This document shows, one piece after another, positions 14,255 through 32,650 of a stretch of DNA of 48,006 bases (its first letter is position 1; each line of letters begins with the position of its first letter). The stretch is from positions 1 through 48,006 of IMG/VR virus record IMGVR_UViG_2541047905_000004; one strand, 5' to 3'. The notes under the pieces are model-generated. The model was given only the letters and a program-made list of their open reading frames with translations, was not told the origin of the DNA and searched no databases. The translations under genes were made by a program, and so were the position numbers. The stretch comes from a virus (taxonomy: Duplodnaviria; Heunggongvirae; Uroviricota; Caudoviricetes).

Positions 14255-14257
14255 TCC

Positions 14258-15670: not shown

Positions 15671-15673
15671 ATT

Positions 15674-15889: not shown

Positions 15890-16385
15890 ACGCTGCCTTG
15901 TCGGGGCCGTGCTGGCTATTGCTGCCACGCTGCCGGGTTTTCAGCAGCTTCACACCTCCGTGGAAGGGCTGAAACTGATTGCCGATTACGAAGGTTGTCG
16001 TCTGCAGCCGTATCAGTGCAGCGCGGGTGTCTGGACCGACGGCATTGGTAATACATCGGGCGTCATCCCGGGCAAAACCATTACGGAACGACAGGCAGCG
16101 GAAGGGCTGATCTCCAACGTGCTGCGTGTGGAGCGGGCGCTGGAAAGGTGTGTGAAGCAACAGCCGCCGCAGAAGGTGTATGACGCTGCGGTGTCGTTTG
16201 CCTTCAACGTGGGAACGGGAAATGCCTGCAGTTCCACACTGGTGAAATTACTCAATCAGCGGCGCTGGGCGGATGCGTGCCGACAGTTGCCGCGCTGGGT
16301 TTATGTAAAAGGTGTTTTTAATCAGGGGCTGGATAACCGCCGTGCGCGGGAGATGGCCTGGTGCCTTAAAGGAGCTGGACTATGA
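15870..16385 (+). CDS. SAR-type endolysin (T4-lysozyme-like muramidase)
   Basis: ATG at 15870 after GGGAGGA; weakly hydrophobic Gly/Ala-rich N-terminus (CLVGAVLAIAATLPG) followed by an E...D...T catalytic pattern (EGLKLIADYEG...DGIGNT). Confidence 0.8.
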   Translation: MNPSIVKRCLVGAVLAIAATLPGFQQLHTSVEGLKLIADYEGCRLQPYQCSAGVWTDGIGNTSGVIPGKTITERQAAEGLISNVLRVERALERCVKQQPPQKVYDAAVSFAFNVGTGNACSSTLVKLLNQRRWADACRQLPRWVYVKGVFNQGLDNRRAREMAWCLKGAGL

Positions 16386-16810
16386 CGCGTGCTCTGGCAG
16401 TAGTGGTGGCGCTGGCACTCGTTGCGCTGGGCTGGCAGTCGAGGCGGCTTAACAGCGCCAGCCACACCATCGAAACGCAGCGCGCGGCGCTGAAAAGTAA
16501 AGCGCAGGAACTAACGAAGAAAAATAGCCAGCTGATCGGTCTGTCCATTCTGGCTGAAACCAACAACCGGGAGCAGGCGCGGCTCTATGCCGACGCAGAA
16601 CAGACCAGCGCACTGCTGAGACAACGACAACACCGGATTGAGGAACTGAAACGTGAGAACGAGGATTTACGCCGCTGGGCTGATACTCCTTTGCCTGCTG
16701 ACATTATCCGGCTGCGGGAACGCCCCACGCTCACCGGAGGTGCAGCTTACCGTCAGTGGTTGTCCGCGAGTGACGCCGTGTCGGCTGGAGCAGGCAGCGC
16801 CGCGCACTAA
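16382..16810 (+). CDS. i-spanin (Rz/LysB-like)
   Basis: N-terminal TM (ALAVVVALALVALGW) and a coiled-coil-like Q/R/E-rich body; start overlaps the endolysin stop. Confidence 0.6.
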   Translation: MTRALAVVVALALVALGWQSRRLNSASHTIETQRAALKSKAQELTKKNSQLIGLSILAETNNREQARLYADAEQTSALLRQRQHRIEELKRENEDLRRWADTPLPADIIRLRERPTLTGGAAYRQWLSASDAVSAGAGSAAH

Positions 16811-16943
16811 TGGTGATCTGAACGCGTTGCTGGATGAAACGGAGGCTGCCTGGGCGGTCTGTGCAGACAAAGTGGACATGATTATTGCGTGTCAGGAGCG
16901 AAACAGTGAACAAACCACAATCCCTGCGCCACGCCCTCAATAA
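16653..16943 (+). CDS. o-spanin lipoprotein (Rz1/LysC-like), overlapping the i-spanin in another frame
   Basis: GTG start at 16653; lipobox LTLSGC in MRTRIYAAGLILLCLLTLSGC; Pro-rich; overlaps the i-spanin 3' half and the start of R. Confidence 0.5.
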   Translation: MRTRIYAAGLILLCLLTLSGCGNAPRSPEVQLTVSGCPRVTPCRLEQAAPRTNGDLNALLDETEAAWAVCADKVDMIIACQERNSEQTTIPAPRPQ

Positions 16944-17337
16944 AGCGGTGCCTTATGTCCGCAATAACCCGGACAAACTGCATCTGTTTGTGGATAACGG
17001 TTCGCTGGTTGCCACAGGGGCCAGCTCCATGTCGTGGGAGTACCGTTACACCCTGAACGCGGTGATTGAGGATTTCAGCGGCGACCAGAATCTGCTGATG
17101 GCCCCGGTTTTGCTGTGGCTGAGGGATAACCAGCCCGATGCCATCAATAACCCGGCGTTACGGGAAAAACTATTCACCTTTGAGGTGGATATTCTGCGCA
17201 ACGATGTCTGTGATATCAGCCTGAACCTGCAACTGACGGAGCGTGTGCTGGTCCGCACTGACGGCAGTGTGTCGAGCGTTGAAGCTGTAGCAGAACCCGA
17301 TGAACCTGAAGAAATGTGGACGGTGAAACGTGGCTGA
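16906..17337 (+). CDS. R: Tail completion protein R (gpR-like)
   Basis: GTG at 16906, 8 nt after AGGAG (track ORF starts at TTG 16885); similar to P2 R as recalled (LRRAL...IFVDNGS...RYTLN). Confidence 0.75.
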   Translation: MNKPQSLRHALNKAVPYVRNNPDKLHLFVDNGSLVATGASSMSWEYRYTLNAVIEDFSGDQNLLMAPVLLWLRDNQPDAINNPALREKLFTFEVDILRNDVCDISLNLQLTERVLVRTDGSVSSVEAVAEPDEPEEMWTVKRG

Positions 17338-17773
17338 ACTGCAGAAGGTGGACGACTGGTTGAGTGCCTTGCTGGCGAATCTGGAACCAGCCACGAGAAG
17401 TCGCATGATGCGCCAGCTGGCGCAGGAACTGCGCAGGACACAACAGAAGAACATCAGGATGCAGCGCAATCCAGATGGCAGTAGTTATGAACCGCGACGG
17501 GTAACAGCACGCAGTAAAAAGGGGCGTATCAAACGTCAGATGTTTGCAAAGCTGCGCACCACAAAATACCTGAAAACTGCCGCCAGCGCCGATTCTGCCA
17601 GCGTGCAGTTTGAAGGTAAGGTACAGCGCATTGCCCGTGTTCACCATTACGGCCTGCGTGATCGCGTCAGCCGCAAAGGACCGGAGGTCCGTTATGCAGA
17701 GCGGCAGTTACTTGGCATAGATTCTAAAATAACCGCCGTTATTCGTAATAAGCTATTTGAGTTTATTAAATAA
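17330..17773 (+). CDS. S: Tail completion / virion morphogenesis protein S (gpS-like)
   Basis: GTG start at 17330 directly after the in-frame stop; 147 aa; follows R. Confidence 0.8.
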   Translation: MAELQKVDDWLSALLANLEPATRSRMMRQLAQELRRTQQKNIRMQRNPDGSSYEPRRVTARSKKGRIKRQMFAKLRTTKYLKTAASADSASVQFEGKVQRIARVHHYGLRDRVSRKGPEVRYAERQLLGIDSKITAVIRNKLFEFIK

Positions 17774-17779
17774 AAACTC

Positions 17780-19576
17780 TCAGGATTGTGATAAATGTAT
17801 TAAACATTGACAAAAATATTTAATGTCGTCACATATTTCATCTTTATTCATGTGTTCCAAAACTTCATCTCGAGTAATTGAGAAGTTATGTTTTAGTGAA
17901 TTTTCGCCACTAATGAAAATTTCTTTTCCATGTGCGTCTTTTAAGGCTGCAGCTATATCTGTAGATGTTATCGAATCAGGGATAGCTAACGCATGTCTAT
18001 CTCTAAAGAAATTACGTATATCTTCTTCAGATGTGTCTGCAGCTCTTGCGATGGCTGATATATCTAGAAAGTAATTTTCAATGTGTCTGCGACGCCATTT
18101 CATGGCTAAAAAATCACTATCGCCGTGATTTGTTGATTTATCTTTAAGATCAGCTCCTACAGAATGGTCGCTATCATCATCACGATCGCGCATGCTAATG
18201 GCTTTTAAGTCAGGAATTTCATTTTTTAATTGTTTGTATAATTGAAATCTTTCTGAAGATTTTCCAGTCCAAAGCCATGTGACAATATTTTTGGGCCATG
18301 TTAGTTCTAACTTTTCAAATATTTTTTTTAGGAATCTTTCATCGCTAACACCTTCAACAATCAACAATTTTTTGTCTTCGGTAAGCTTATGGATTTTAGG
18401 GCTAAAGATCGTGCCAATTCCACTTAATAGACCTATTTTTTCATTATCAGATCCAAGGTATTTCCCTCTGGACTTTGATAGTGCCAAAATTTTCTGTGGT
18501 TCATAAGCCCTGATTAATTCAGTAGAGTGTGTTGCCAATAGGACCTGCTTTCCTTTTTTAATTGTTATCTCTTCTAAACGTTCAGTTAGATTTTTCTGTA
18601 ATTGTGTATGCAGGTGAGCATCTGGTTCATCTAGTAGAATGACATTAAATTCTTCTGATAAGGCCAATGTATATACACTTAACCATTGAAGAAAACCGCT
18701 TCCTTCAACCATAATATCTCTAGCATTGAAGTTTTTGTGTTTTTTAAATTGATAACCATTGACAACGCCAGCGACACATTCAATTTTTAAGTAACTATGA
18801 TATTGTTCATTAAATGGAGTTACTTCAAGTTTTAAAGAAAAAAGGTCAAAGAGTGTTTTTTGTAATATTTCCCAAGGATCTGTTTCCCTTAATAAATTAA
18901 GGTCTTTATTGGCGATTTTGTTTCGCCCTTCTTTTAACTTCCGGCGTTTGTTTTGATTCTCTAAGTGAATATCGTAAATAGAATTTCTGATTACTCCACC
19001 AGAAAGCCCCTGACCGATTAGTCGATTCCTCATTGCTGGGCTAAGACGGCTTTCTCGGTCTGTAATACCTGCAAATGGAGGGAGATAAGCGATCTGGGGT
19101 ATATTCTCATTATTTGGAGAACCATCGTCATTCTGTATTTCTTGTAAAGCAAGGTTGCTAGATGTATTTTTTATAAATAATCTATCATTTGCTAATGATA
19201 AACCGATCTCTAAAAACTTCTCATTTTTTAAAATATCATCCCAAAAAAGCTTTATCTTTAGAGTATAACCATCATCTTCTGTTTGTTTTTGAGATTTTAA
19301 ATTGGTCCATAAGTGGCTTAAAGACGGTATAAACATCGGCGTGAAATCGACAATGCCTAGTCCGACACCTTGATTTGTCGCATTTTCAGTCCAACTCACT
19401 CTTCCTTTTTCAATTTCTAAAAGAGTCTTACAGAATTGCCACGTTGCCATTGCTTGCAGTAACGATGACTTACCGGAATTGTTCCCGCCGACTAGGAGGC
19501 TTAATTCGTCATTTAATTGTATTGTTGAGTTTTTATATTTTTTGAATTTCTTAAGCTCTACTTTTTTTATGTACAT
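17780..19576 (-). CDS. ABC-type ATPase fused to a Toprim-like C-terminal domain (OLD-family / PARIS AriA-AriB-like); candidate anti-phage defence or exclusion gene
   Basis: 598 aa, ATG at 19576 (rc). Walker A GGNNSGKSS, signature-like GLSGG, Walker B ILLDEPDAHLH, H-loop LLATHS; C-terminal LLIVEGVSDERF and SMRDRDDDSD acidic motifs. AT-rich, opposite strand, inserted between S and V. Confidence 0.6.
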   Translation of the reverse strand: MYIKKVELKKFKKYKNSTIQLNDELSLLVGGNNSGKSSLLQAMATWQFCKTLLEIEKGRVSWTENATNQGVGLGIVDFTPMFIPSLSHLWTNLKSQKQTEDDGYTLKIKLFWDDILKNEKFLEIGLSLANDRLFIKNTSSNLALQEIQNDDGSPNNENIPQIAYLPPFAGITDRESRLSPAMRNRLIGQGLSGGVIRNSIYDIHLENQNKRRKLKEGRNKIANKDLNLLRETDPWEILQKTLFDLFSLKLEVTPFNEQYHSYLKIECVAGVVNGYQFKKHKNFNARDIMVEGSGFLQWLSVYTLALSEEFNVILLDEPDAHLHTQLQKNLTERLEEITIKKGKQVLLATHSTELIRAYEPQKILALSKSRGKYLGSDNEKIGLLSGIGTIFSPKIHKLTEDKKLLIVEGVSDERFLKKIFEKLELTWPKNIVTWLWTGKSSERFQLYKQLKNEIPDLKAISMRDRDDDSDHSVGADLKDKSTNHGDSDFLAMKWRRRHIENYFLDISAIARAADTSEEDIRNFFRDRHALAIPDSITSTDIAAALKDAHGKEIFISGENSLKHNFSITRDEVLEHMNKDEICDDIKYFCQCLIHLSQS

Positions 19577-19666
19577 AGTGGAGATACCTAACCTTTATTA
19601 AACCAAATCGCCTCATCATGAGAACTGGGACAGTTTACTATCTACTGAATTGTTTCTAAAGAGAAT

Positions 19667-19684
19667 TGTATCAAGTTCCAGACA
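19667..19684. promoter_or_regulatory. Late promoter activator site (TGT-N12-ACA) upstream of V
   Basis: TGT at 19667-19669, ATCAAGTTCCAG, ACA at 19682-19684; about 50 bp upstream of the V ATG; -10-like TATGTG follows. Confidence 0.4.
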
Positions 19685-19732
19685 ATTACAATCCATTTGG
19701 GACACGCCCAATATGTGGCAATTTTTTAAGCT

Positions 19733-20311
19733 ATGAATGCACAATTAACCGAAATCATGCGCCTTATCACTAACCTGATCCGCACTGGTGTAGTCACCGA
19801 AGTGGACCGGGAAAACTGGCTTTGCCGGGTGAAAACGGGCGACCTTGAAACCAACTGGATCAGCTGGCTGACGCTGCGTGCCGGGAATGCCCGCACATGG
19901 TGGCGACCATCGGAAGGTGAGCAGGTGGTGGTGCTGAGTCTGGCAGGCAATCTGGAAACCGCGTTTGCGCTGCCCGCCATCTATTCGAATCAGTTCGCTC
20001 CACCGTCGACGTCGGCAGACGCCTGCGTGACAGAACATCCTGACGGCGGCTGGTTTGAATACGAACCCACCACCGGGCGCTGGTATGTCAGGGGCATCAA
20101 ATCCATGGTCATTGAGACTGCCGACAACATCACCCTGAAAACCAGTGAGTTTGTGCTGGAGGCTGACCGCACGCGTATTAACAGCGAAGTAGTGATCAAT
20201 GGTGGCGTTACCCAGGGCGGCGGAGTGATGAGTTCTAACGGGATCGTCGTTGATGCGCATCAGCATACTGGCGTCCTGAAAGGCGGCGACACAACCGGAG
20301 GCCCGGTATGA
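19733..20311 (+). CDS. V: Baseplate assembly / spike protein V (gpV-like)
   Basis: 192 aa; aligns by eye with P2 gpV (…RTWW.PS.GEQV…AF.LP.IYS…SNG…H.H.G…GGTTG). Confidence 0.85.
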   Translation: MNAQLTEIMRLITNLIRTGVVTEVDRENWLCRVKTGDLETNWISWLTLRAGNARTWWRPSEGEQVVVLSLAGNLETAFALPAIYSNQFAPPSTSADACVTEHPDGGWFEYEPTTGRWYVRGIKSMVIETADNITLKTSEFVLEADRTRINSEVVINGGVTQGGGVMSSNGIVVDAHQHTGVLKGGDTTGGPV

Positions 20312-20667
20312 CGCTTTATAGCGGGATGAACAATACCAGCGGTAAAGCCATTACTGATATTGACCATCTGCGCCAGTCGGTGCGGGACATTCTGCTGACA
20401 CCGCAGGGTAGCCGTATTGCCCGTCGTGAATATGGCTCCCTGCTGTTGGCGCTAATAGACCAGCCACAAAATCCGGCGTTACGCCTGCAGGTCATGTCGG
20501 CAGTGTATGTGGCGCTGAGTCGCTGGGAGCCACGGCTGACGCTGGATTCCATCACCATTAACAGCAATTTTGACGGTTCAATGGTGGTGGAGCTGACCGG
20601 GCGGCGTAATAACGGTGTGCCTGTTTCCCTTTCCGTATCAACAGGAGCAGAGAATGGCAGTGATTGA
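20308..20667 (+). CDS. W: Baseplate protein W (gpW / gp25-like)
   Basis: ATG at 20308 after GGAGG, overlapping the V stop; 119 aa. Confidence 0.8.
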   Translation: MTLYSGMNNTSGKAITDIDHLRQSVRDILLTPQGSRIARREYGSLLLALIDQPQNPALRLQVMSAVYVALSRWEPRLTLDSITINSNFDGSMVVELTGRRNNGVPVSLSVSTGAENGSD

Positions 20668-21562
20668 CCTTTCGCAGTTGCCTGCGCCGCAGATTGTGGA
20701 TGTGCCGGACTTTGAGACGCTGCTTGCCGAACGCAAGGCCGAATTTGTTGCGCTTCATCCGAAAGATGAGCAGGAAGCAGTGATCCGCACGCTTGAACTG
20801 GAATCTGAACCCGTCACCAAATTGCTGCAGGAGAACGCTTACCGTGAGTTGCTTCTGCGCCAGCGCATTAACGAAGCCGCGCAGGCTGTGATGGTGGCTT
20901 ACGCTATGGGCAGCGATCTTGACCAGCTCGCTGCCAACTACAACGTGAAACGCCTGACGGTGACGCCTGCTGATAATGACGCTGTGCCGCCCGTTGCAGC
21001 TGTGATGGAAAGCGATGAAGCGTTACGCCTGCGTGTGCCTGCAGCCTTTGAAGGGCTTTCAGTTGCGGGGCCAACTGCAGCTTATGAATTTCATGCCCGA
21101 AGCGCCGACGGTCGGGTGGCGGATGCCAGTGCAACCAGCCCGGCACCTGCAGAGGTGGTGCTGACTGTCCTTAGCCGCGAAGGCGATGGAACTGCAGAAA
21201 AAGATCTGCTGGACGTGGTGGAAAAAGCTCTGAACAGTGAGAACGTCCGCCCGGTGGCTGACCGTCTGACGGTTCGCAGCGCAGAAATCATCCCGTATCG
21301 CGTGGAAGCCACCATTTTTCTCTATCCGGGACCGGAAGCAGAGCCGGTAATGGCAGCGGCAAAAGCCAGCCTGCAGAAGTACATCGCCAGTCAGACGCGT
21401 CTTGGTCGGGATATTCGCCGTAGCGCCATCTTTGCCGCACTGCATGTTGAGGGTGTGCAGCGTGTGGAGCTGGCTTCTCCTCTGGCGGATGTGGTCCTGA
21501 ACAAAACACAGGCGGCATCATGTACGCAGTGGAGCGTAACCAACGGAGGAACGGATGAATAG
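20654..21562 (+). CDS. J: Baseplate assembly protein J (gpJ-like)
   Basis: ATG at 20654 after GGAGCAGAGA (track ORF starts earlier); about 302 aa. Confidence 0.85.
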   Translation: MAVIDLSQLPAPQIVDVPDFETLLAERKAEFVALHPKDEQEAVIRTLELESEPVTKLLQENAYRELLLRQRINEAAQAVMVAYAMGSDLDQLAANYNVKRLTVTPADNDAVPPVAAVMESDEALRLRVPAAFEGLSVAGPTAAYEFHARSADGRVADASATSPAPAEVVLTVLSREGDGTAEKDLLDVVEKALNSENVRPVADRLTVRSAEIIPYRVEATIFLYPGPEAEPVMAAAKASLQKYIASQTRLGRDIRRSAIFAALHVEGVQRVELASPLADVVLNKTQAASCTQWSVTNGGTDE

Positions 21563-22160
21563 TCTGCTGCCACCGGGTTCAACACCACTGGAGCGCCGAC
21601 TGGCGCAAACCTGCAGCGGGATTTCTGATCTGCAGGTGCCGCTTCGTGACTTGTGGAATCCGGCAACCTGCCCGGTCAGTTTCCTGCCTTATCTCGCCTG
21701 GGCGTTCTCTGTGGATCGCTGGGACGAGGGCTGGACAGAAAGCGTCAAGCGCCAGGTGGTGAAGGATGCTTTTTATATTCATCAGCATAAAGGGACCACC
21801 AGTGCCGTGCGTCGGGTGGTGGAGCCGTTCGGCTTTCTGATCCGCATTATTGAGTGGTGGCAGACCGGAGAGACACCGGGCACGTTTCGTCTGGATATCG
21901 GCGTGCAGGACCAGGGCATCACTGAAGATACCTATCTGGAACTTGAGCGACTGATAAGCGATGCCAAACCATGTAGCCGTCACATGATCGGCATGTCCAT
22001 CAACCTGCAGACCAGCGGCCCGCATTGGGTGGGAGCCGCCAGCTATCTTGGCGAAGAAATCACGATCTATCCGTATATCAACGAAACAATTATTTCCGGC
22101 GGCACCGCGCATGAAGGCGGGGCGGTCCATGTTATTGACACAATGAGAGTGAATCCATGA
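21555..22160 (+). CDS. I: Baseplate / tail formation protein I (gpI-like)
   Basis: ATG at 21555 after GGAGG; 201 aa; between J and H. Confidence 0.8.
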
Positions 22161-23557
22161 GCACAAAATTTTATACCCTGCTGACGGATATTGGCGCGGC
22201 GAAACTTGCCAGCGCCGCCGCGCTCGGTGTGCCTTTAAAAATTACCCATATGGCGGTCGGCGATGGCGGCGGAACATTGCCAACGCCGGACGCAAAGCAG
22301 ACAGCATTAGTAAATGAGAAACGCCGGGCTGCGCTGAATATGCTCTATATCGACCCGCAGAACAGCAGCCAGATTATTGCTGAACAGGTGATCCCTGAAA
22401 ACGAGGGCGGTTGGTGGATACGTGAAGTGGGCCTGTTTGATGAGTCCGGGGCATTGATTGCCGTGGGCAACTGCCCGGAAAGCTATAAGCCGCAACTGGC
22501 TGAAGGCAGCGGGCGTACCCAGACCGTGCGCATGGTGCTGATTACCAGCAGCACGGACAATATCACCCTGAAAATCGACCCTGCCGTAGTGCTGGCAACC
22601 CGCAAGTATGTGGATGACAAGGTACTGGAGCTGAAGGTGTACGTAGATGACCTGATGGCAAAACATCTTGCTGCACAGGACCCACATTCACAGTACGCGC
22701 CAAAAGCCAGCCCGACATTTACCGGAACCCCCAAAGCGCCAACGCCAGCGGCGGGGAATAATACCACGCGGGTTGCGACCACTGCGTTTGTACAGGCGGC
22801 ACTGACGGCCCTTATTAATGGTGCGCCAGCCACGCTGGACACGCTGAAAGAAATAGCCGCAGCCATTAACAATGATCCGAATTTCAGTACCACCATTAAC
22901 AATGCGCTGGCACTAAAAGCACCGTTGTCGAGTCCGGCACTCACCGGAACGCCAACAGCCCCCACGGCGGCGCAGTCGGTCAACAATACACAGATTGCCA
23001 CTACGGCTTTTGTGAAATCGGCGATTGCAGGAATGGTGGGTTCTGCACCTGCTGCACTGGATACACTGAACGAACTGGCGGCGGCACTGGGGAATGATCC
23101 GAACTTTGCCACGACAATGCTTAATGCGCTGGCAGGTAAACAACCGCTGGACAATACGCTTACCAATTTGAGTGGAAAGGATGTGGCTGGTCTTCTCGCA
23201 TACCTTGGTTTGGGAAAAGCGGCTAAAAGGAATGTAGGGACAGGGGCGAATCAGATACCTGATATGGGTAGCTTCACGCTTTCTGTTTCAGGTACTGGAT
23301 ATCAAAAATTACCATCAGGTTTTATTCTTCAGTGGGGCTCAATCGGCGCACCAGGCATTGCACAGGATGTAGTAACCCATTTCCCGATTGCATTTCCAAA
23401 CAGATGTCTGCGTGTTTTGGTCTCACAAGACTACACACCAGATAGCGGGGCTGTTGGTTATATTGCCTGTGCAGGTTTTAGTCCCGACCCGGTTAAATTT
23501 ATATCCAGAGCCAGTACTCCTGGCCTCGGCGCTTCATTTTTAGCGTTAGGCTGTTAA
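22157..23557 (+). CDS. H: Tail fibre protein H, variant 1 (constant N-terminal part plus Mu/P1 S-type C-terminal module)
   Basis: 466 aa; N-terminus [18 protein letters not shown]...MAVGDGGG typical of P2 gpH; C-terminal 114 aa (from 23216) unique to this copy, with [13 protein letters not shown]. Confidence 0.85.
23193..23218. other. Candidate serine-invertase crossover site (hix/gix/cix/pix-like), left
   Basis: TTCTCGCATACC-TT-GGTTTGGGAAAA: two 12-bp imperfect inverted half-sites (9/12) around a central dinucleotide; inverted copy of the right site with 25/26 identity; lies exactly at the constant/variable junction of H. Confidence 0.55.
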
Positions 23558-23578
23558 TTTAGCTATATGGAGTGAAAA

Positions 23579-24019
23579 ATGAATTACATATATTCCGCGA
23601 CTACAAACTCTTTCTATCCGCTGGAGATGAAAGAGGATTACACTCAAGCTGACTCATGGCCAGATGATGCTGTTGAAGTTGATGAGCAAGTGTATATTGA
23701 GTTTTCCGGATTACCGCCGAAAGGAAAAATCCGTATCGCTGGAGAAAATGGTTTTCCTGCATGGTCTGAAATTCCACCACCAACACATGAGGAACAGATT
23801 GCTGCAGCCGAACTGGAAAAGCAGCAACTGATTAATCAGGCCAACGATTATATGAACAGTAAACAATGGCCTGGTAAAGCGGCTATTGGCCGGCTGAAAG
23901 GTGAGGAACTGGCGCAATATAATTTGTGGCTGGATTATCTGGACGCACTGGAACTGGTCGATACTTCCGGTGCGCCAGATATTGAATGGCCTACGCCTCC
24001 GGCAGTTCAGGCCAGATGA
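23579..24019 (+). CDS. Tail fibre assembly protein (Tfa / gpG-like), cognate to H variant 1
   Basis: ATG at 23579, 21 nt after the H stop, with GGAGTGA; C-terminal WLDYLDAL...WPTPP Tfa-type motif. Confidence 0.75.
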   Translation: MNYIYSATTNSFYPLEMKEDYTQADSWPDDAVEVDEQVYIEFSGLPPKGKIRIAGENGFPAWSEIPPPTHEEQIAAAELEKQQLINQANDYMNSKQWPGKAAIGRLKGEELAQYNLWLDYLDALELVDTSGAPDIEWPTPPAVQAR

Positions 24020-24584
24020 CGTCCGGCGCTGTGCTGGTATCTGTTGCCGTCACCGCGTCAATGTAATCCAGCACAGCGTTAAGTCGGGTGTTTTCTGGCT
24101 GCGTCAGCTTCCGCCCAGCCTGTAATTTCAGTTGAATCAGACTGATGGAAGCCATTGCAGCATCAATCAGCGACTGGCGCTGTGCTTCTGCCGCTTCTAC
24201 TGCGGCGCTATGCTGTGCCTCGGTATCCGTCACCCATTTCTCACCATCCCATTTATCGTATGGCGTTAACGGTGAAAGCGTGACATAACCGTCTTTGATG
24301 GCACCGATATAATCCACTGTAACAGCTGCGCCATTTTCAGTTGAGTAAACGGTCTCATTGCGATGGTCTTCTTCATGGCTCCATCCCTTACCCGTAAATA
24401 CTGCCACTTTTCCCGGAATGTTTTCGCCCGGGTCAATACCAGTGGAACAGGCGGGTATACTTACGCCAGTATTAATATATTCATCAGACCAGCCGGTATA
24501 TTCATACGTTACTGCATTATAATAAAAACAACGCATATCGCCCGGCACTGTAGCCAGCCCATTTTCATCAAAAACAGGTTTCAT
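23991..24584 (-). CDS. Tail fibre assembly protein (Tfa / gpG-like), cognate to H variant 2
   Basis: ATG at 24584 (rc) overlapping the H-variant-2 stop (TAATG); C-terminal VLDYIDAV...WPELP Tfa motif; 3' end overlaps the other Tfa by 29 bp. Confidence 0.75.
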   Translation of the reverse strand: MKPVFDENGLATVPGDMRCFYYNAVTYEYTGWSDEYINTGVSIPACSTGIDPGENIPGKVAVFTGKGWSHEEDHRNETVYSTENGAAVTVDYIGAIKDGYVTLSPLTPYDKWDGEKWVTDTEAQHSAAVEAAEAQRQSLIDAAMASISLIQLKLQAGRKLTQPENTRLNAVLDYIDAVTATDTSTAPDVIWPELPEA

Positions 24585-26164
24585 TATTTAGCCCTCACCA
24601 GAAAGTTAAATGCAATATTTCGTGGACGGGTTTCTGTATCTACATTTCCACTAATTTCACCATAACGTTTAACACTACGAGAGCTAAGAGCTCGTAGTGA
24701 GGAAGGCACCTTAAGACCGGGTTCGTCCGTTTTAACTATTCCCCCGTCACCGTATGTGGCCAGTATTCCTGGGTTTACTCCCTCCCGTGCACTTCCTGCG
24801 GCAAGCCCGTCCCCCGTCCACAACTCCATATTGTGTGCATGATCCATAATTGTGTGTGATTGCCCTGAAAGTAGGGTACGTCCGACATCAATCCCGCGCC
24901 CATCATCCCAGATACGAATGAAATCACCCCGTGCGTCAGGTAATGCTAGCGCCGGAAACACTTTCGCCAGCACAGGGTAATCAGTGGCAGAGAATTTCGC
25001 GCCGTTGAACTTCAAAAACACCATACTGGACCAACTGTCGATTACAGTATTTGGCATTGCGGCGGACGGCCAGAAGAACGGAACGCCAATAGCTGGAGCA
25101 CCTTCTCCCAAACCAAGGTATGCGAGAAGACCAGCCACATCCTTTCCACTCAAATTGGTAAGCGTATTGTCCAGCGGTTGTTTACCTGCCAGCGCATTAA
25201 GCATTGTCGTGGCAAAGTTCGGATCATTCCCCAGTGCCGCCGCCAGTTCGTTCAGTGTATCCAGTGCAGCAGGTGCAGAACCCACCATTCCTGCAATCGC
25301 CGATTTCACAAAAGCCGTAGTGGCAATCTGTGTATTGTTGACCGACTGCGCCGCCGTGGGGGCTGTTGGCGTTCCGGTGAGTGCCGGACTCGACAACGGT
25401 GCTTTTAGTGCCAGCGCATTGTTAATGGTGGTACTGAAATTCGGATCATTGTTAATGGCTGCGGCTATTTCTTTCAGCGTGTCCAGCGTGGCTGGCGCAC
25501 CATTAATAAGGGCCGTCAGTGCCGCCTGTACAAACGCAGTGGTCGCAACCCGCGTGGTATTATTCCCCGCCGCTGGCGTTGGCGCTTTGGGGGTTCCGGT
25601 AAATGTCGGGCTGGCTTTTGGCGCGTACTGTGAATGTGGGTCCTGTGCAGCAAGATGTTTTGCCATCAGGTCATCTACGTACACCTTCAGCTCCAGTACC
25701 TTGTCATCCACATACTTGCGGGTTGCCAGCACTACGGCAGGGTCGATTTTCAGGGTGATATTGTCCGTGCTGCTGGTAATCAGCACCATGCGCACGGTCT
25801 GGGTACGCCCGCTGCCTTCAGCCAGTTGCGGCTTATAGCTTTCCGGGCAGTTGCCCACGGCAATCAATGCCCCGGACTCATCAAACAGGCCCACTTCACG
25901 TATCCACCAACCGCCCTCGTTTTCAGGGATCACCTGTTCAGCAATAATCTGGCTGCTGTTCTGCGGGTCGATATAGAGCATATTCAGCGCAGCCCGGCGT
26001 TTCTCATTTACTAATGCTGTCTGCTTTGCGTCCGGCGTTGGCAATGTTCCGCCGCCATCGCCGACCGCCATATGGGTAATTTTTAAAGGCACACCGAGCG
26101 CGGCGGCGCTGGCAAGTTTCGCCGCGCCAATATCCGTCAGCAGGGTATAAAATTTTGTGCTCAT
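24584..26164 (-). CDS. H: Tail fibre protein H, variant 2 (same constant N-terminus plus tail-collar-type C-terminal module)
   Basis: 526 aa; first ~347 aa identical to variant 1; unique C-terminus (coded 24584..25105) contains LPDARGDFIRIWDDGRGID...SGQSHTIMDHAH, typical of phage tail collar domains. Confidence 0.85.
   Translation of the reverse strand: MSTKFYTLLTDIGAAKLASAAALGVPLKITHMAVGDGGGTLPTPDAKQTALVNEKRRAALNMLYIDPQNSSQIIAEQVIPENEGGWWIREVGLFDESGALIAVGNCPESYKPQLAEGSGRTQTVRMVLITSSTDNITLKIDPAVVLATRKYVDDKVLELKVYVDDLMAKHLAAQDPHSQYAPKASPTFTGTPKAPTPAAGNNTTRVATTAFVQAALTALINGAPATLDTLKEIAAAINNDPNFSTTINNALALKAPLSSPALTGTPTAPTAAQSVNNTQIATTAFVKSAIAGMVGSAPAALDTLNELAAALGNDPNFATTMLNALAGKQPLDNTLTNLSGKDVAGLLAYLGLGEGAPAIGVPFFWPSAAMPNTVIDSWSSMVFLKFNGAKFSATDYPVLAKVFPALALPDARGDFIRIWDDGRGIDVGRTLLSGQSHTIMDHAHNMELWTGDGLAAGSAREGVNPGILATYGDGGIVKTDEPGLKVPSSLRALSSRSVKRYGEISGNVDTETRPRNIAFNFLVRAK
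25103..25128. other. Candidate serine-invertase crossover site, right
   Basis: TTCTCCCAAACC-AA-GGTATGCGAGAA; resembles hixL as I recall it (TTCTTGAAAACCAAGGTTTTTGATAA); inverted relative to the left site. Confidence 0.55.
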
Positions 26165-26766
26165 GGATTCACTCTCATTGTGTCAATAACATGGACCGCC
26201 CCGCCTTCATGCGCGGTGCCGCCGGAAATAATTGTTTCGTTGATATACGGATAGATCGTGATTTCTTCGCCAAGATAGCTGGCGGCTCCCACCCAATGCG
26301 GGCCGCTGGTCTGCAGGTTGATGGACATGCCGATCATGTGACGGCTACATGGTTTGGCATCGCTTATCAGTCGCTCAAGTTCCAGATAGGTATCTTCAGT
26401 GATGCCCTGGTCCTGCACGCCGATATCCAGACGAAACGTGCCCGGTGTCTCTCCGGTCTGCCACCACTCAATAATGCGGATCAGAAAGCCGAACGGCTCC
26501 ACCACCCGACGCACGGCACTGGTGGTCCCTTTATGCTGATGAATATAAAAAGCATCCTTCACCACCTGGCGCTTGACGCTTTCTGTCCAGCCCTCGTCCC
26601 AGCGATCCACAGAGAACGCCCAGGCGAGATAAGGCAGGAAACTGACCGGGCAGGTTGCCGGATTCCACAAGTCACGAAGCGGCACCTGCAGATCAGAAAT
26701 CCCGCTGCAGGTTTGCGCCAGTCGGCGCTCCAGTGGTGTTGAACCCGGTGGCAGCAGACTATTCAT
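26161..26766 (-). CDS. I: Baseplate / tail formation protein I (mirror copy)
   Basis: Mirror of 21555..22160; identical translation. Confidence 0.8.
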   Translation of the reverse strand: MNSLLPPGSTPLERRLAQTCSGISDLQVPLRDLWNPATCPVSFLPYLAWAFSVDRWDEGWTESVKRQVVKDAFYIHQHKGTTSAVRRVVEPFGFLIRIIEWWQTGETPGTFRLDIGVQDQGITEDTYLELERLISDAKPCSRHMIGMSINLQTSGPHWVGAASYLGEEITIYPYINETIISGGTAHEGGAVHVIDTMRVNP

Positions 26767-27667
26767 CCGTTCCTCCGTTGGTTACGCTCCACTGCGTACA
26801 TGATGCCGCCTGTGTTTTGTTCAGGACCACATCCGCCAGAGGAGAAGCCAGCTCCACACGCTGCACACCCTCAACATGCAGTGCGGCAAAGATGGCGCTA
26901 CGGCGAATATCCCGACCAAGACGCGTCTGACTGGCGATGTACTTCTGCAGGCTGGCTTTTGCCGCTGCCATTACCGGCTCTGCTTCCGGTCCCGGATAGA
27001 GAAAAATGGTGGCTTCCACGCGATACGGGATGATTTCTGCGCTGCGAACCGTCAGACGGTCAGCCACCGGGCGGACGTTCTCACTGTTCAGAGCTTTTTC
27101 CACCACGTCCAGCAGATCTTTTTCTGCAGTTCCATCGCCTTCGCGGCTAAGGACAGTCAGCACCACCTCTGCAGGTGCCGGGCTGGTTGCACTGGCATCC
27201 GCCACCCGACCGTCGGCGCTTCGGGCATGAAATTCATAAGCTGCAGTTGGCCCCGCAACTGAAAGCCCTTCAAAGGCTGCAGGCACACGCAGGCGTAACG
27301 CTTCATCGCTTTCCATCACAGCTGCAACGGGCGGCACAGCGTCATTATCAGCAGGCGTCACCGTCAGGCGTTTCACGTTGTAGTTGGCAGCGAGCTGGTC
27401 AAGATCGCTGCCCATAGCGTAAGCCACCATCACAGCCTGCGCGGCTTCGTTAATGCGCTGGCGCAGAAGCAACTCACGGTAAGCGTTCTCCTGCAGCAAT
27501 TTGGTGACGGGTTCAGATTCCAGTTCAAGCGTGCGGATCACTGCTTCCTGCTCATCTTTCGGATGAAGCGCAACAAATTCGGCCTTGCGTTCGGCAAGCA
27601 GCGTCTCAAAGTCCGGCACATCCACAATCTGCGGCGCAGGCAACTGCGAAAGGTCAATCACTGCCAT
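26759..27667 (-). CDS. J: Baseplate assembly protein J (mirror copy)
   Basis: Mirror of 20654..21562; identical translation. Confidence 0.85.
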   Translation of the reverse strand: MAVIDLSQLPAPQIVDVPDFETLLAERKAEFVALHPKDEQEAVIRTLELESEPVTKLLQENAYRELLLRQRINEAAQAVMVAYAMGSDLDQLAANYNVKRLTVTPADNDAVPPVAAVMESDEALRLRVPAAFEGLSVAGPTAAYEFHARSADGRVADASATSPAPAEVVLTVLSREGDGTAEKDLLDVVEKALNSENVRPVADRLTVRSAEIIPYRVEATIFLYPGPEAEPVMAAAKASLQKYIASQTRLGRDIRRSAIFAALHVEGVQRVELASPLADVVLNKTQAASCTQWSVTNGGTDE

Positions 27668-28013
27668 TCTCTGCTCCTGTTGATACGGAAAGGGAAACAG
27701 GCACACCGTTATTACGCCGCCCGGTCAGCTCCACCACCATTGAACCGTCAAAATTGCTGTTAATGGTGATGGAATCCAGCGTCAGCCGTGGCTCCCAGCG
27801 ACTCAGCGCCACATACACTGCCGACATGACCTGCAGGCGTAACGCCGGATTTTGTGGCTGGTCTATTAGCGCCAACAGCAGGGAGCCATATTCACGACGG
27901 GCAATACGGCTACCCTGCGGTGTCAGCAGAATGTCCCGCACCGACTGGCGCAGATGGTCAATATCAGTAATGGCTTTACCGCTGGTATTGTTCATCCCGC
28001 TATAAAGCGTCAT
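27654..28013 (-). CDS. W: Baseplate protein W (mirror copy)
   Basis: Mirror of 20308..20667; identical translation. Confidence 0.8.
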   Translation of the reverse strand: MTLYSGMNNTSGKAITDIDHLRQSVRDILLTPQGSRIARREYGSLLLALIDQPQNPALRLQVMSAVYVALSRWEPRLTLDSITINSNFDGSMVVELTGRRNNGVPVSLSVSTGAENGSD

Positions 28014-28588
28014 ACCGGGCCTCCGGTTGTGTCGCCGCCTTTCAGGACGCCAGTATGCTGATGCGCATCAACGACGATCCCGTTAGAACTCATCACTCCG
28101 CCGCCCTGGGTAACGCCACCATTGATCACTACTTCGCTGTTAATACGCGTGCGGTCAGCCTCCAGCACAAACTCACTGGTTTTCAGGGTGATGTTGTCGG
28201 CAGTCTCAATGACCATGGATTTGATGCCCCTGACATACCAGCGCCCGGTGGTGGGTTCGTATTCAAACCAGCCGCCGTCAGGATGTTCTGTCACGCAGGC
28301 GTCTGCCGACGTCGACGGTGGAGCGAACTGATTCGAATAGATGGCGGGCAGCGCAAACGCGGTTTCCAGATTGCCTGCCAGACTCAGCACCACCACCTGC
28401 TCACCTTCCGATGGTCGCCACCATGTGCGGGCATTCCCGGCACGCAGCGTCAGCCAGCTGATCCAGTTGGTTTCAAGGTCGCCCGTTTTCACCCGGCAAA
28501 GCCAGTTTTCCCGGTCCACTTCGGTGACTACACCAGTGCGGATCAGGTTAGTGATAAGGCGCATGATTTCGGTTAATTGTGCATTCAT
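28010..28588 (-). CDS. V: Baseplate spike protein V (mirror copy)
   Basis: Mirror of 19733..20311; identical translation. Confidence 0.85.
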   Translation of the reverse strand: MNAQLTEIMRLITNLIRTGVVTEVDRENWLCRVKTGDLETNWISWLTLRAGNARTWWRPSEGEQVVVLSLAGNLETAFALPAIYSNQFAPPSTSADACVTEHPDGGWFEYEPTTGRWYVRGIKSMVIETADNITLKTSEFVLEADRTRINSEVVINGGVTQGGGVMSSNGIVVDAHQHTGVLKGGDTTGGPV

Positions 28589-28636
28589 AGCTTAAAAAAT
28601 TGCCACATATTGGGCGTGTCCCAAATGGATTGTAAT

Positions 28637-28654
28637 TGTCTGGAACTTGATACA
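28637..28654. promoter_or_regulatory. Late promoter TGT-N12-ACA site upstream of V (mirror copy)
   Basis: Mirror of 19667..19684. Confidence 0.4.
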
Positions 28655-28744
28655 ATTCTCTTTAGAAACAATTCAGTAGATAGTAAACTGTCCCAGTTCT
28701 CATGATGAGGCGATTTGGTTTAATAAAGGTTAGGTATCTCCACT

Positions 28745-30541
28745 ATGTACATAAAAAAAGTAGAGCTTAAGAAATTCAAAAAATATAAAAACTCAACAAT
28801 ACAATTAAATGACGAATTAAGCCTCCTAGTCGGCGGGAACAATTCCGGTAAGTCATCGTTACTGCAAGCAATGGCAACGTGGCAATTCTGTAAGACTCTT
28901 TTAGAAATTGAAAAAGGAAGAGTGAGTTGGACTGAAAATGCGACAAATCAAGGTGTCGGACTAGGCATTGTCGATTTCACGCCGATGTTTATACCGTCTT
29001 TAAGCCACTTATGGACCAATTTAAAATCTCAAAAACAAACAGAAGATGATGGTTATACTCTAAAGATAAAGCTTTTTTGGGATGATATTTTAAAAAATGA
29101 GAAGTTTTTAGAGATCGGTTTATCATTAGCAAATGATAGATTATTTATAAAAAATACATCTAGCAACCTTGCTTTACAAGAAATACAGAATGACGATGGT
29201 TCTCCAAATAATGAGAATATACCCCAGATCGCTTATCTCCCTCCATTTGCAGGTATTACAGACCGAGAAAGCCGTCTTAGCCCAGCAATGAGGAATCGAC
29301 TAATCGGTCAGGGGCTTTCTGGTGGAGTAATCAGAAATTCTATTTACGATATTCACTTAGAGAATCAAAACAAACGCCGGAAGTTAAAAGAAGGGCGAAA
29401 CAAAATCGCCAATAAAGACCTTAATTTATTAAGGGAAACAGATCCTTGGGAAATATTACAAAAAACACTCTTTGACCTTTTTTCTTTAAAACTTGAAGTA
29501 ACTCCATTTAATGAACAATATCATAGTTACTTAAAAATTGAATGTGTCGCTGGCGTTGTCAATGGTTATCAATTTAAAAAACACAAAAACTTCAATGCTA
29601 GAGATATTATGGTTGAAGGAAGCGGTTTTCTTCAATGGTTAAGTGTATATACATTGGCCTTATCAGAAGAATTTAATGTCATTCTACTAGATGAACCAGA
29701 TGCTCACCTGCATACACAATTACAGAAAAATCTAACTGAACGTTTAGAAGAGATAACAATTAAAAAAGGAAAGCAGGTCCTATTGGCAACACACTCTACT
29801 GAATTAATCAGGGCTTATGAACCACAGAAAATTTTGGCACTATCAAAGTCCAGAGGGAAATACCTTGGATCTGATAATGAAAAAATAGGTCTATTAAGTG
29901 GAATTGGCACGATCTTTAGCCCTAAAATCCATAAGCTTACCGAAGACAAAAAATTGTTGATTGTTGAAGGTGTTAGCGATGAAAGATTCCTAAAAAAAAT
30001 ATTTGAAAAGTTAGAACTAACATGGCCCAAAAATATTGTCACATGGCTTTGGACTGGAAAATCTTCAGAAAGATTTCAATTATACAAACAATTAAAAAAT
30101 GAAATTCCTGACTTAAAAGCCATTAGCATGCGCGATCGTGATGATGATAGCGACCATTCTGTAGGAGCTGATCTTAAAGATAAATCAACAAATCACGGCG
30201 ATAGTGATTTTTTAGCCATGAAATGGCGTCGCAGACACATTGAAAATTACTTTCTAGATATATCAGCCATCGCAAGAGCTGCAGACACATCTGAAGAAGA
30301 TATACGTAATTTCTTTAGAGATAGACATGCGTTAGCTATCCCTGATTCGATAACATCTACAGATATAGCTGCAGCCTTAAAAGACGCACATGGAAAAGAA
30401 ATTTTCATTAGTGGCGAAAATTCACTAAAACATAACTTCTCAATTACTCGAGATGAAGTTTTGGAACACATGAATAAAGATGAAATATGTGACGACATTA
30501 AATATTTTTGTCAATGTTTAATACATTTATCACAATCCTGA
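28745..30541 (+). CDS. OLD/PARIS-like ABC ATPase-Toprim fusion (mirror copy)
   Basis: Mirror of 17780..19576; identical 598-aa translation. Confidence 0.6.
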   Translation: MYIKKVELKKFKKYKNSTIQLNDELSLLVGGNNSGKSSLLQAMATWQFCKTLLEIEKGRVSWTENATNQGVGLGIVDFTPMFIPSLSHLWTNLKSQKQTEDDGYTLKIKLFWDDILKNEKFLEIGLSLANDRLFIKNTSSNLALQEIQNDDGSPNNENIPQIAYLPPFAGITDRESRLSPAMRNRLIGQGLSGGVIRNSIYDIHLENQNKRRKLKEGRNKIANKDLNLLRETDPWEILQKTLFDLFSLKLEVTPFNEQYHSYLKIECVAGVVNGYQFKKHKNFNARDIMVEGSGFLQWLSVYTLALSEEFNVILLDEPDAHLHTQLQKNLTERLEEITIKKGKQVLLATHSTELIRAYEPQKILALSKSRGKYLGSDNEKIGLLSGIGTIFSPKIHKLTEDKKLLIVEGVSDERFLKKIFEKLELTWPKNIVTWLWTGKSSERFQLYKQLKNEIPDLKAISMRDRDDDSDHSVGADLKDKSTNHGDSDFLAMKWRRRHIENYFLDISAIARAADTSEEDIRNFFRDRHALAIPDSITSTDIAAALKDAHGKEIFISGENSLKHNFSITRDEVLEHMNKDEICDDIKYFCQCLIHLSQS

Positions 30542-30547
30542 GAGTTT

Positions 30548-30991
30548 TTATTTAATAAACTCAAATAGCTTATTACGAATAACGGCGGTTATTTTAGAAT
30601 CTATGCCAAGTAACTGCCGCTCTGCATAACGGACCTCCGGTCCTTTGCGGCTGACGCGATCACGCAGGCCGTAATGGTGAACACGGGCAATGCGCTGTAC
30701 CTTACCTTCAAACTGCACGCTGGCAGAATCGGCGCTGGCGGCAGTTTTCAGGTATTTTGTGGTGCGCAGCTTTGCAAACATCTGACGTTTGATACGCCCC
30801 TTTTTACTGCGTGCTGTTACCCGTCGCGGTTCATAACTACTGCCATCTGGATTGCGCTGCATCCTGATGTTCTTCTGTTGTGTCCTGCGCAGTTCCTGCG
30901 CCAGCTGGCGCATCATGCGACTTCTCGTGGCTGGTTCCAGATTCGCCAGCAAGGCACTCAACCAGTCGTCCACCTTCTGCAGTTCAGCCAC
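30548..30991 (-). CDS. S: Tail completion protein S (mirror copy)
   Basis: Mirror of 17330..17773; identical translation. Confidence 0.8.
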   Translation of the reverse strand: MAELQKVDDWLSALLANLEPATRSRMMRQLAQELRRTQQKNIRMQRNPDGSSYEPRRVTARSKKGRIKRQMFAKLRTTKYLKTAASADSASVQFEGKVQRIARVHHYGLRDRVSRKGPEVRYAERQLLGIDSKITAVIRNKLFEFIK

Positions 30992-31415
30992 GTTTCACCG
31001 TCCACATTTCTTCAGGTTCATCGGGTTCTGCTACAGCTTCAACGCTCGACACACTGCCGTCAGTGCGGACCAGCACACGCTCCGTCAGTTGCAGGTTCAG
31101 GCTGATATCACAGACATCGTTGCGCAGAATATCCACCTCAAAGGTGAATAGTTTTTCCCGTAACGCCGGGTTATTGATGGCATCGGGCTGGTTATCCCTC
31201 AGCCACAGCAAAACCGGGGCCATCAGCAGATTCTGGTCGCCGCTGAAATCCTCAATCACCGCGTTCAGGGTGTAACGGTACTCCCACGACATGGAGCTGG
31301 CCCCTGTGGCAACCAGCGAACCGTTATCCACAAACAGATGCAGTTTGTCCGGGTTATTGCGGACATAAGGCACCGCTTTATTGAGGGCGTGGCGCAGGGA
31401 TTGTGGTTTGTTCAC
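30984..31415 (-). CDS. R: Tail completion protein R (mirror copy)
   Basis: Mirror of 16906..17337. Confidence 0.75.
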   Translation of the reverse strand: MNKPQSLRHALNKAVPYVRNNPDKLHLFVDNGSLVATGASSMSWEYRYTLNAVIEDFSGDQNLLMAPVLLWLRDNQPDAINNPALREKLFTFEVDILRNDVCDISLNLQLTERVLVRTDGSVSSVEAVAEPDEPEEMWTVKRG

Positions 31416-31668
31416 TGTTTCGCTCCTGACACGCAATAATCATGTCCACTTTGTCTGCACAGACCGCCCAGGCAGCCTCCGTTTCATCCAGCAACGCGTT
31501 CAGATCACCATTAGTGCGCGGCGCTGCCTGCTCCAGCCGACACGGCGTCACTCGCGGACAACCACTGACGGTAAGCTGCACCTCCGGTGAGCGTGGGGCG
31601 TTCCCGCAGCCGGATAATGTCAGCAGGCAAAGGAGTATCAGCCCAGCGGCGTAAATCCTCGTTCTCAC
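31378..31668 (-). CDS. o-spanin lipoprotein (mirror copy)
   Basis: Mirror of 16653..16943. Confidence 0.5.
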   Translation of the reverse strand: MRTRIYAAGLILLCLLTLSGCGNAPRSPEVQLTVSGCPRVTPCRLEQAAPRTNGDLNALLDETEAAWAVCADKVDMIIACQERNSEQTTIPAPRPQ

Positions 31669-31939
31669 GTTTCAGTTCCTCAATCCGGTGTTGTCGTTGT
31701 CTCAGCAGTGCGCTGGTCTGTTCTGCGTCGGCATAGAGCCGCGCCTGCTCCCGGTTGTTGGTTTCAGCCAGAATGGACAGACCGATCAGCTGGCTATTTT
31801 TCTTCGTTAGTTCCTGCGCTTTACTTTTCAGCGCCGCGCGCTGCGTTTCGATGGTGTGGCTGGCGCTGTTAAGCCGCCTCGACTGCCAGCCCAGCGCAAC
31901 GAGTGCCAGCGCCACCACTACTGCCAGAGCACGCGTCAT
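31511..31939 (-). CDS. i-spanin (mirror copy)
   Basis: Mirror of 16382..16810. Confidence 0.6.
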   Translation of the reverse strand: MTRALAVVVALALVALGWQSRRLNSASHTIETQRAALKSKAQELTKKNSQLIGLSILAETNNREQARLYADAEQTSALLRQRQHRIEELKRENEDLRRWADTPLPADIIRLRERPTLTGGAAYRQWLSASDAVSAGAGSAAH

Positions 31940-32647: not shown

Positions 32648-32650
32648 AAT

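Follow-up and report, generated by a model that had tools for sequence, protein, structure and literature searches.

A palindromic 48-kb scaffold of a P2-like Escherichia coli prophage, very probably folded back by misassembly at a tail-fibre crossover site

The window, the whole 48,006-nt stretch analyzed here, is very probably a misassembled draft scaffold, and the real element an ordinary P2-like prophage of E. coli. It corresponds in full to KE701826.1, a 48,006-bp scaffold of the draft assembly GCA_000460555.1, and contains zero N characters. A tail-fibre cassette at 22157-26164 carries H and G on the plus strand and G' and a second full-length H on the minus strand. From there the window reads on into a reverse-complement copy of its own H gene and not into a tail module. 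The preliminary description had preferred the reading that the true downstream sequence was replaced by a fold-back, and this is supported by the continuation of an identical finished prophage and by scaffold ends that lie in IS4.

Mirrored arms and missing genes

Positions 315-23215 are the exact reverse complement of 25106-48006 (22,901 nt, 0 mismatches), confirming the earlier observation that a mirror image of the upstream genome follows the fibre cassette. The arms are identical base for base and turn at a sequence present in inverted copies; their pairing first fails at 23216, within a 26-bp crossover site. The proteins deposited in GenBank are likewise mirrored about the central segment (EQX44309/44356, EQX44326/44339, EQX44331/44334). 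The large-scale features are the following:

1..562, minus strand: end of an IS4 copy, 98.6% identical to the IS4 of many E. coli genomes
315..23215, plus strand: left arm, read as true sequence from the left part of a P2-like prophage; collinear with prophages of finished E. coli genomes
25106..48006, minus strand: right arm, read as an artefactual reverse-complement copy of 315-23215 (0 mismatches in 22,901 nt)

The left arm runs through CI, CII, Dam, A, cargo, Q, P, O, N, M, L and X, followed by holin, lysozyme, LysB/C, R, S, an ATPase cargo, V, W, J, I and the constant part of H. It differs from a relative (L029) by 2 mismatches across 563-16712. Multicopy IS4 sequence lies at both scaffold ends, reached to different depths by the two arms (562 and 248 nt). 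On the left, the N-terminal 165 codons of the transposase are present and truncated by the scaffold end, and the called gene at 1-496 (minus strand) contains the PF13006 Nterm_IS4 domain. Comparison with an int-bearing relative places the junction between IS4 and the prophage (562/563) between the Shine-Dalgarno sequence and the ATG of int. Exact-pattern scans for this junction in viral, genome and metagenome contig collections returned no match.

The right arm occupies the place of the invertase, FI, FII, E, E', T, U, D, ogr and attR. A six-frame tblastn search of the window with the proteins of a close relative (L001) gave only chance matches (best E = 0.69) for invertase, FI, FII, E, E', T, U, D and ogr, while I, H, G, G' and the alternative C-terminus of H were recovered at 96-100% identity. 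The same search thereby confirms, for the window, the absence of the invertase, sheath, tube, E, tape measure, U, D and ogr genes to which the preliminary description had drawn attention.

The invertible segment and its hybrid right junction

A search of the window with the Hin/Gin pattern identified exactly two 26-bp sites, at 23193-23218 and 25103-25128, where 0 were expected by chance. They form an inverted pair with imperfect dyad symmetry around a 2-bp core, fit the published consensus (PMC4134206, Table 3) and delimit a segment within the fibre cassette:

22157..23557, plus strand: H in orientation 1, 466 aa, constant part and variable C-terminus 1 (ORF)
23193..23218, plus strand: left (H-side) crossover site, TTCTCGCATACC TT GGTTTGGGAAAA (pattern search)
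23219..25102, no strand assigned: invertible segment between the sites (ORFs; 100% identical to L009, the finished chromosome OZ038772.1)
23579..24019, plus strand: G, tail-fibre assembly chaperone for Hv1, 146 aa (PF02413 Caudo_TAP)
23991..24584, minus strand: G', alternative tail-fibre assembly chaperone for Hv2, 197 aa (PF28596 and PF02413)
24584..26164, minus strand: full-length H in orientation 2, 526 aa, constant part and variable C-terminus 2 (ORF)
25103..25128, plus strand: right site, hybrid, TTCTCCCAAACC AA GGTATGCGAGAA (pattern search, relatives compared)

The segment holds the C-terminal part of Hv1 and G on the plus strand, and G' and Hv2 on the minus strand. The constant N-terminal part of H thus lies outside, and the alternative C-termini with their cognate chaperones lie inside on opposite strands. 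The 466-aa H contains the Pfam domains Phage_tail_fib and Gp53-like_C, the latter forming a gp53-like C domain, and is 96% identical to the annotated H of L001, whose G counterpart is 100% identical to that of the window. The 466-aa and 526-aa H proteins share residues 1-353 and diverge straight after LAYLGLG; the left site falls within the codons for LLAYLGLG. The exact 526-aa protein is present in other assemblies, and the finished genome KOr024, which is in the flipped state, contains a contiguous 98% match. The 526-aa H is a real product of the flipped state, and the artefact is its co-occurrence with the 466-aa H on one molecule.

Both orientations of the segment occur among finished genomes, with L009, L001 and L003 in one state and KOr024 (L028) in the other. 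Both states are also found among Mu-like carriers of the same module. The exact G' protein is shared by Mu-like and e14-like elements.

While the left site has the same sequence in L009, the right site of the window is a hybrid, combining the segment-side half of the invertase-side site with the outer half of the H-side site. In all finished relatives the right-site outer half reads CGTTTA[AT]GAAAA. This invertase-side outer half-site (CGTTTATGAAAA) is absent from the right junction of the window, which differs from L009 at 25117, 25120, 25122, 25123, 25126 and 25129. Each of the seven finished relatives (7/7) has one H-side and one invertase-side site, and two H-side outer halves occur in the window only. 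The fold-back break must fall within 25106-25116, an interval that ends at the core AA in the right site, and the turn falls inside an 11-nt identity between the two crossover sites. Judged by its sequence, the half-site combination is the exact product expected of inversion, namely the junction between the H constant part and the alternative C-terminus in the flipped state.

The position of this break bears on whether the palindrome arose independently of the inversion system, through a chimeric molecule in the library or through a long read in which an overlooked hairpin adapter links a forward insert to its reverse complement. Unremoved SMRTbell adapters are known to produce spurious palindromic contigs through false hairpins (PMC4134206), but such an event should turn at random, with no loop or one the size of an adapter; here the loop consists of the invertible segment (1.9 kb), and the break lies right at a crossover site, yielding the exact recombinant combination of half-sites. 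An origin of this kind is vanishingly unlikely. A random chimeric read was ruled out by the same coincidence of break and site. A replicon with hairpin telomeres was also considered and ruled out by the P2-like gene content, the arm ends in IS4 and the loop of 1.9 kb.

Continuation in finished genomes and a proposed assembly path

The finished E. coli chromosome OZ038772.1 (L009) is identical to the window across 12157-25116 (100.000% identity over 12,960 nt, 0 mismatches) and departs from it just past the central AA of the right crossover site. Beyond that site, L009 encodes a 188-aa Gin-like invertase followed by FI, FII, E, T, U, D, ogr and ybjL, the products after the invertase being sheath, tube, tail assembly protein, tape measure, U, D, ogr and ybjL. 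The invertase contains Resolvase and HTH_7 domains and matches the Gin structure 3uj3 (E = 2.6e-92). All the finished P2-like relatives that were inspected have an invertase gene starting ∼30 nt past the segment, with FI-FII-E-E'-T-U-D-ogr after it; in KOr024, finished in the flipped state, the invertase and tail genes are still downstream. The neighbours that the preliminary description expected, an adjacent invertase and the genes from FI to ogr, are therefore borne out in each of these relatives. The window itself has neither a serine invertase adjoining one of its sites, a lack attributed here to the misassembly, nor a complete P2-like tail module downstream of its fibre genes; the former is found in OZ038772.1 and all finished relatives, the latter in every finished relative. 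L009 is an independent finished assembly that lacks the fold-back, and no finished genome contains such a structure.

These comparisons also weigh on the proposal that the prophage is truly defective, having lost its invertase and the FI-to-ogr module and depending for any inversion on an invertase from elsewhere in the genome. The window contains none of these genes, and inversion in trans by the invertase of another prophage has been documented for Phi4 of EC958 (PMC4134206). IS4 lies at the int end of the element, and some decay has therefore occurred. However, a deletion would leave unexplained both the 22.9-kb perfect mirror after the segment and the H-side outer half in the right site, and the full module is present in the identical prophage of L009 and in all other finished relatives inspected. 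The preliminary description had raised a defective element with a trans-acting invertase as its alternative; the sole support for it was the absence of the genes, which the structure of the scaffold explains. We regard a defective prophage as very unlikely.

Under the preferred reading, misassembly of an ordinary prophage, the H gene would end in a Gin/Hin-type invertible segment bounded by two inverted 26-bp sites, with a serine invertase gene directly downstream and then FI, FII, E, E', T, U, D and ogr. The sequenced culture would have contained the segment in both orientations, so that reads would support the H-constant/Hv1 and H-constant/Hv2 junctions alike. The assembler may then have entered the segment by the H-constant/Hv1 junction, left it by the H-constant/Hv2 junction, and retraced the same prophage arm on the opposite strand, stopping in the repeated IS4. 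The window carries both H-constant junctions (Hv1 and Hv2), and because the right one corresponds to the flipped-state junction, the scaffold, as its sequence reads, brings together two junctions of a switching segment, one per orientation. Since this right junction is a genuine junction of the flipped orientation, the culture probably held both orientations. A genuine flipped junction would also argue for an active invertase rather than a missing one.

The invertase and tail-shaft genes are very probably not deleted; they are off this scaffold and most probably carried by a different one in the assembly. Proteins that match the L009 tape measure and U exactly have been deposited as EQX56765.1 and EQX56766.1, in the same EQX accession series as the proteins of the scaffold (EQX44309-44356). 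Their numbers are ∼12,400 away from those of the scaffold, which exceeds one genome if numbering is contiguous, and they may come from another isolate. Among the listed records, the exact H, A and ATPase proteins had no second EQX copy.

A real 48-kb palindromic molecule could in principle arise as an inverted duplication, through an invertase joining the sites of sister copies, or by template switching. If the H-side site in one copy were joined to the invertase-side site in its sister, exactly the observed junctions would result, and a chimeric assembly path and a real recombinant molecule give identical junctions. Template switching is possible at the 11-nt identity of the sites, and the break can be placed no more finely than these 11 nt. 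A second assembly apparently has the same order of H, G, G' and full-length H' (KDX85802, KDX85805; 70.9-kb contig), but recurrence in a second draft equally fits systematic assembler behaviour. Gin and Hin invertases act on inverted sites in cis, within a supercoiled complex that depends on the Fis enhancer, and intermolecular exchange is strongly disfavoured, which counts against exchange between copies. Moreover, such an event in the chromosome would leave an inverted structure, dimeric or dicentric, E. coli does not stably maintain a perfect palindrome of 23 kb, the unequal depths at which the arms end in IS4 are typical of assembly breaks, and the structure is absent from finished genomes. 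A real palindrome is accordingly judged highly improbable. If true, it would make invertible segments the seeds of large palindromic rearrangements.

Relation to known inversion systems and consequences

The module corresponds to the Gin/Cin/Pin/Hin family, represented by the G segment of Mu, the C segment of P1 and the P segment of e14. These likewise have two inverted 26-bp sites with a 2-bp core, a constant H part outside, and inside two alternative C-termini, encoded on opposite strands and each paired with a separate chaperone. In the identical or near-identical prophages, a Gin-like serine invertase of 188 aa likewise stands directly beside the segment. There is no biological difference from this family; what sets the window apart is the mirrored arm, which stands in place of the invertase gene and of the outer half-site on the invertase side. 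In gene order, the left arm matches the late region of P2/186 (V W J I H G, FI FII E E' T U D ogr) through H and G, and the finished relatives supply the remainder after G. P2 itself is not known to have an invertible segment or an invertase. Unlike P2, the lineage of the window has both inserted between G and FI, and carries cargo between S and V as well as between the DinI-like gene and Q.

The nearest parallels are the segments of P2-like and other prophages in E. coli EC958 and EPEC E2348/69, and the sites tabulated for EC958 resemble those of the window (PMC4134206). Clonal cultures of strains that carry P2-like prophages contain the two orientations side by side (PMC4272514). Little was found in the literature on palindromic contigs and misassembly, the relevant source being the EC958 study, which reported that tail-fibre inversions in E. 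coli prophages generate spurious contigs and warned of artefactual duplications in phage regions (Forde et al. 2014, PMC4134206). There too, a population of mixed orientation led the assembler to output both alleles; the alternative allele of EC958 appeared as separate contigs of 8.7-12.7 kb (PMC4134206), whereas here the two are chained into one palindromic scaffold of 48 kb. Both the biology and artefacts of this kind are already described in print.

The fold-back is very probably an ordinary assembly artefact and involves no new biology. Its value lies in curation: KE701826.1 carries ∼23 kb of artefactual mirrored sequence together with duplicated protein records, and it would mislead the scoring of prophage completeness, inverted terminal repeats and gene content. 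The same fault seems to be present in at least one other draft assembly. A fold-back that turns at a crossover site and carries recombinant half-sites is, at the same time, an indirect record of segment switching in culture.

Fold-back structure of the scaffold

The feature is very probably an artefact of assembly that arose at an invertible tail-fibre segment of a familiar type, carried by an ordinary P2-like prophage. An inverted-repeat search resolves the 48,006-base window into two ∼22.9-kb arms with ∼1.9 kb between them, and a base-by-base check reveals that 25106-48006 is the exact reverse complement of 315-23215 (22,901 nt, 0 mismatches), the first mismatch between the arms falling at 23216. 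There is no N anywhere in the window, which an exact-protein match identifies as the entire scaffold KE701826.1 (48,006 bp) of the NCBI draft assembly GCA_000460555.1. The left end is part of an IS4 copy, and the mirrored right end runs 248 nt into the same IS4, then stops; short-read assemblies typically end in multicopy insertion sequences, at repeats. A relative without IS4 aligns to the window from 563 on (2 mismatches in 16 kb). The genes of the left arm are those of a P2/186-like prophage and follow the customary order.

Features of the left arm and fibre cassette (window coordinates)
1-562, end of an IS4 copy (98.6% identity to IS4), with a called gene carrying Nterm_IS4
Left arm, first block: CI, CII, Fil, Dam methylase and replication protein A, then cargo genes
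Left arm, middle block: Q, P, O, N, M, L, X, holin, lysozyme, LysB/C, R, S
17780-19576, minus strand (mirror 28745-30541, plus strand), 598-aa AAA_15/AAA_21 ATPase, opposite to its neighbours, between S and V
Left arm, last block: V, W, J, I, H
22157-23557, plus strand, tail-fibre gene H, 466 aa
23193-23218, left crossover site, TTCTCGCATACC TT GGTTTGGGAAAA
23579-24019, plus strand, chaperone G, 146 aa
23991-24584, minus strand, chaperone G', 197 aa
24584-26164, minus strand, second full-length H, 526 aa
25103-25128, right crossover site, TTCTCCCAAACC AA GGTATGCGAGAA

The IS4 end adjoins the prophage at 562/563 (mirror copy 47760-48006), between the int Shine-Dalgarno (GGAGG, minus strand) and the int start codon of relatives, so that int in this strain is separated from its ribosome-binding site or lost; this neighbourhood is common to two other contigs in the collection. 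The best PADLOC matches of the 598-aa ATPase are AriAB (E = 8.5e-26), AriA and GajA, and it is therefore likely an anti-phage defence cargo gene. Among relatives, the S-V slot holds nothing in L001, a 288-aa hypothetical protein in L002 and a 176-aa protein in L012. A variable cargo region (7458-9383), from a DinI-like gene to the portal gene Q, encodes a 141-aa protein whose hydrophobic N-terminus may be a signal peptide, a 96-aa protein and, judging by its sequence, a putative 228-aa multi-pass membrane protein, none of the three with a PADLOC match. Relatives carry in its place a TIGR02391 protein, a P-loop NTPase with a RES protein, ABC-three-component genes or a 520-aa hypothetical protein.

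Crossover sites and the point of turn

Residues 1-353 are common to both H products, which diverge immediately afterwards. The cassette is built like a Mu G-type invertible segment, with the constant fibre part, two alternative C-termini (Hv1 and Hv2) and two cognate chaperones all present. A search with the Hin/Gin-type pattern TTCTCNNNNACCNNGGTNNNNGAGAA (≤2 mismatches) finds exactly two matches in the window, where shuffles predict 0; both agree with the 26-bp sites and consensus tabulated, after Sandmeier 1994, for the E. coli EC958 prophages (PMC4134206).

Since identity to the finished chromosome OZ038772.1 (L009) stops at 25116 and mirroring of the left arm starts at 25106, the break is confined to the 11 nt TCCCAAACCAA. 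These end in the central AA, the position of strand exchange for the Gin/Hin invertase family. Across seven finished relatives, the site beside the H constant part (H-side) has the outer half TTCTC[GA]CATACC, and the site beside the invertase gene (invertase-side) has the outer half CGTTTA[AT]GAAAA. The right site of the window combines the segment-side half of the invertase-side site, including the diagnostic base 25105, with the outer half of the H-side site: exactly the H-side recombinant site made by segment inversion. The left junction is the parental H-side junction, the right one its flipped-state counterpart, and neither invertase-side junction occurs in the window, which is thus a chain of one junction from each segment orientation.

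For a genuine flipped-state junction to be present in the data, an active invertase must have been at work on this prophage. This counts against a truly defective prophage lacking an invertase, the other option in the preliminary description, which also leaves the mirror image and the hybrid site unexplained and is highly improbable. The least credible explanation, its probability close to negligible, is a randomly formed read chimera or an overlooked hairpin adapter, neither of which would place the turn at a crossover site and leave a loop of 1.9 kb. The assembly artefact would instead start from a culture holding both orientations, with reads supporting every junction along H constant, Hv1, G, G', Hv2 and reverse-complement H constant; the assembler would walk this path and then presumably return down the same prophage arm. 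Such a path agrees with clonal E. coli cultures holding both orientations of P2-like prophage segments (PMC4272514) and with EC958, where about half of the reads had a prophage tail-fibre segment in the alternative orientation and inversion led to spurious contigs, the authors warning of artefactual duplications (PMC4134206).

Downstream sequence in finished relatives

A tblastn search of all six frames with a close relative's proteins found no invertase, FI, FII, E, E', T, U, D or ogr in the window (best E = 0.69, chance), whereas identities of 96-100% were obtained for I, H, G, G' and the alternative C-terminus; the preliminary description had rightly reported the invertase, sheath, tube, tape measure, D and ogr as missing. 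The same cassette occurs at ∼96% identity in complete E. coli genomes. In CE0021a, NRZ14408 and EC931, a 188-aa 'recombinase family protein' lies ∼30 nt beyond the alternative C-terminal fragment, as expected of an invertase normally adjacent to its segment, followed by sheath, tube, E, E', tape measure, U, D, ogr and the attR flank beside ybjL.

L009 carries an identical prophage over 12157-25116 (12,960 nt, 0 mismatches). From 25117 it reads CGTTTATGAAAATGCAGAG..., whereas the window reads GGTATGCGAGAAGACCAGCC..., which repeats its H constant part in reverse complement. L009 continues with a Resolvase/HTH_7 protein, sheath, tube, tail assembly protein, tape measure, U, D, ogr and ybjL, which upholds the previously preferred reading that the fold-back replaced the true downstream sequence. 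Its recombinase matches the Gin invertase crystal-structure sequences 3uj3 and 4m6f (E about 1e-92). The flipped state by itself is natural, since finished KOr024 has the order I, H-constant/Hv2, G', G (minus), Hv1 fragment (minus), invertase, sheath, tube. The exact 526-aa H protein is also found in other assemblies.

A real palindromic duplication, through intermolecular recombination or template switching, would yield identical junctions and the same sequence. However, enzymes of the Gin/Hin family act in cis and under topological constraints, long palindromes are unstable in E. coli, the arms end in IS4, and none of the finished genomes examined has the structure; all of this speaks against such a duplication, and we consider it very unlikely.

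Traces in other assemblies and spread of the cassette

Annotation was applied to the scaffold in its deposited form, and so the protein accessions run symmetrically on either side of the segment (A, EQX44309/EQX44356; ATPase, EQX44326/EQX44339; H/H', EQX44331/EQX44334), every pair summing to 88665. Each arm gene thereby has two accessions (range EQX44309-EQX44356), artefactual duplicates in public protein databases. A tape measure and U identical to those of L009 are deposited as EQX56765.1 and EQX56766.1, and the exact H, A and ATPase sequences have no further EQX copy among the exact-match entries listed. The right half of the prophage may therefore be located elsewhere in this project, whether in GCA_000460555.1 or, as the EQX numbers are ∼12,400 apart, in another assembly. 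In a second assembly (KDX85779-KDX85805), H-466 (KDX85802) and full-length H'-526 (KDX85805) are three genes apart, apparently on a 70.9-kb contig grouped with the fold-back as having the same neighbours; the artefact was thus probably produced at least twice, the second time in an independent draft genome. Two further draft assemblies have the prophage H alone on ∼2-kb contigs (L007, JOSM01000001.1, 1,925 bp; L011, JOSN01000180.1, 2,047 bp), one in the Hv2 and one in the Hv1 form. Inversion heterogeneity probably both fragments assemblies and folds them back.

The exact 197-aa G' also occurs in Mu-like prophages and in an e14-like element beside a 184-aa invertase (loci L013-L018 and L021; window 23579-25100), where it is joined by a 146-aa chaperone and alternative fibre ends similar, by description, to those of the window. 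With G' present in both orientations among finished genomes, its distribution suggests that the switch cassette travels as a module between unrelated tail types.
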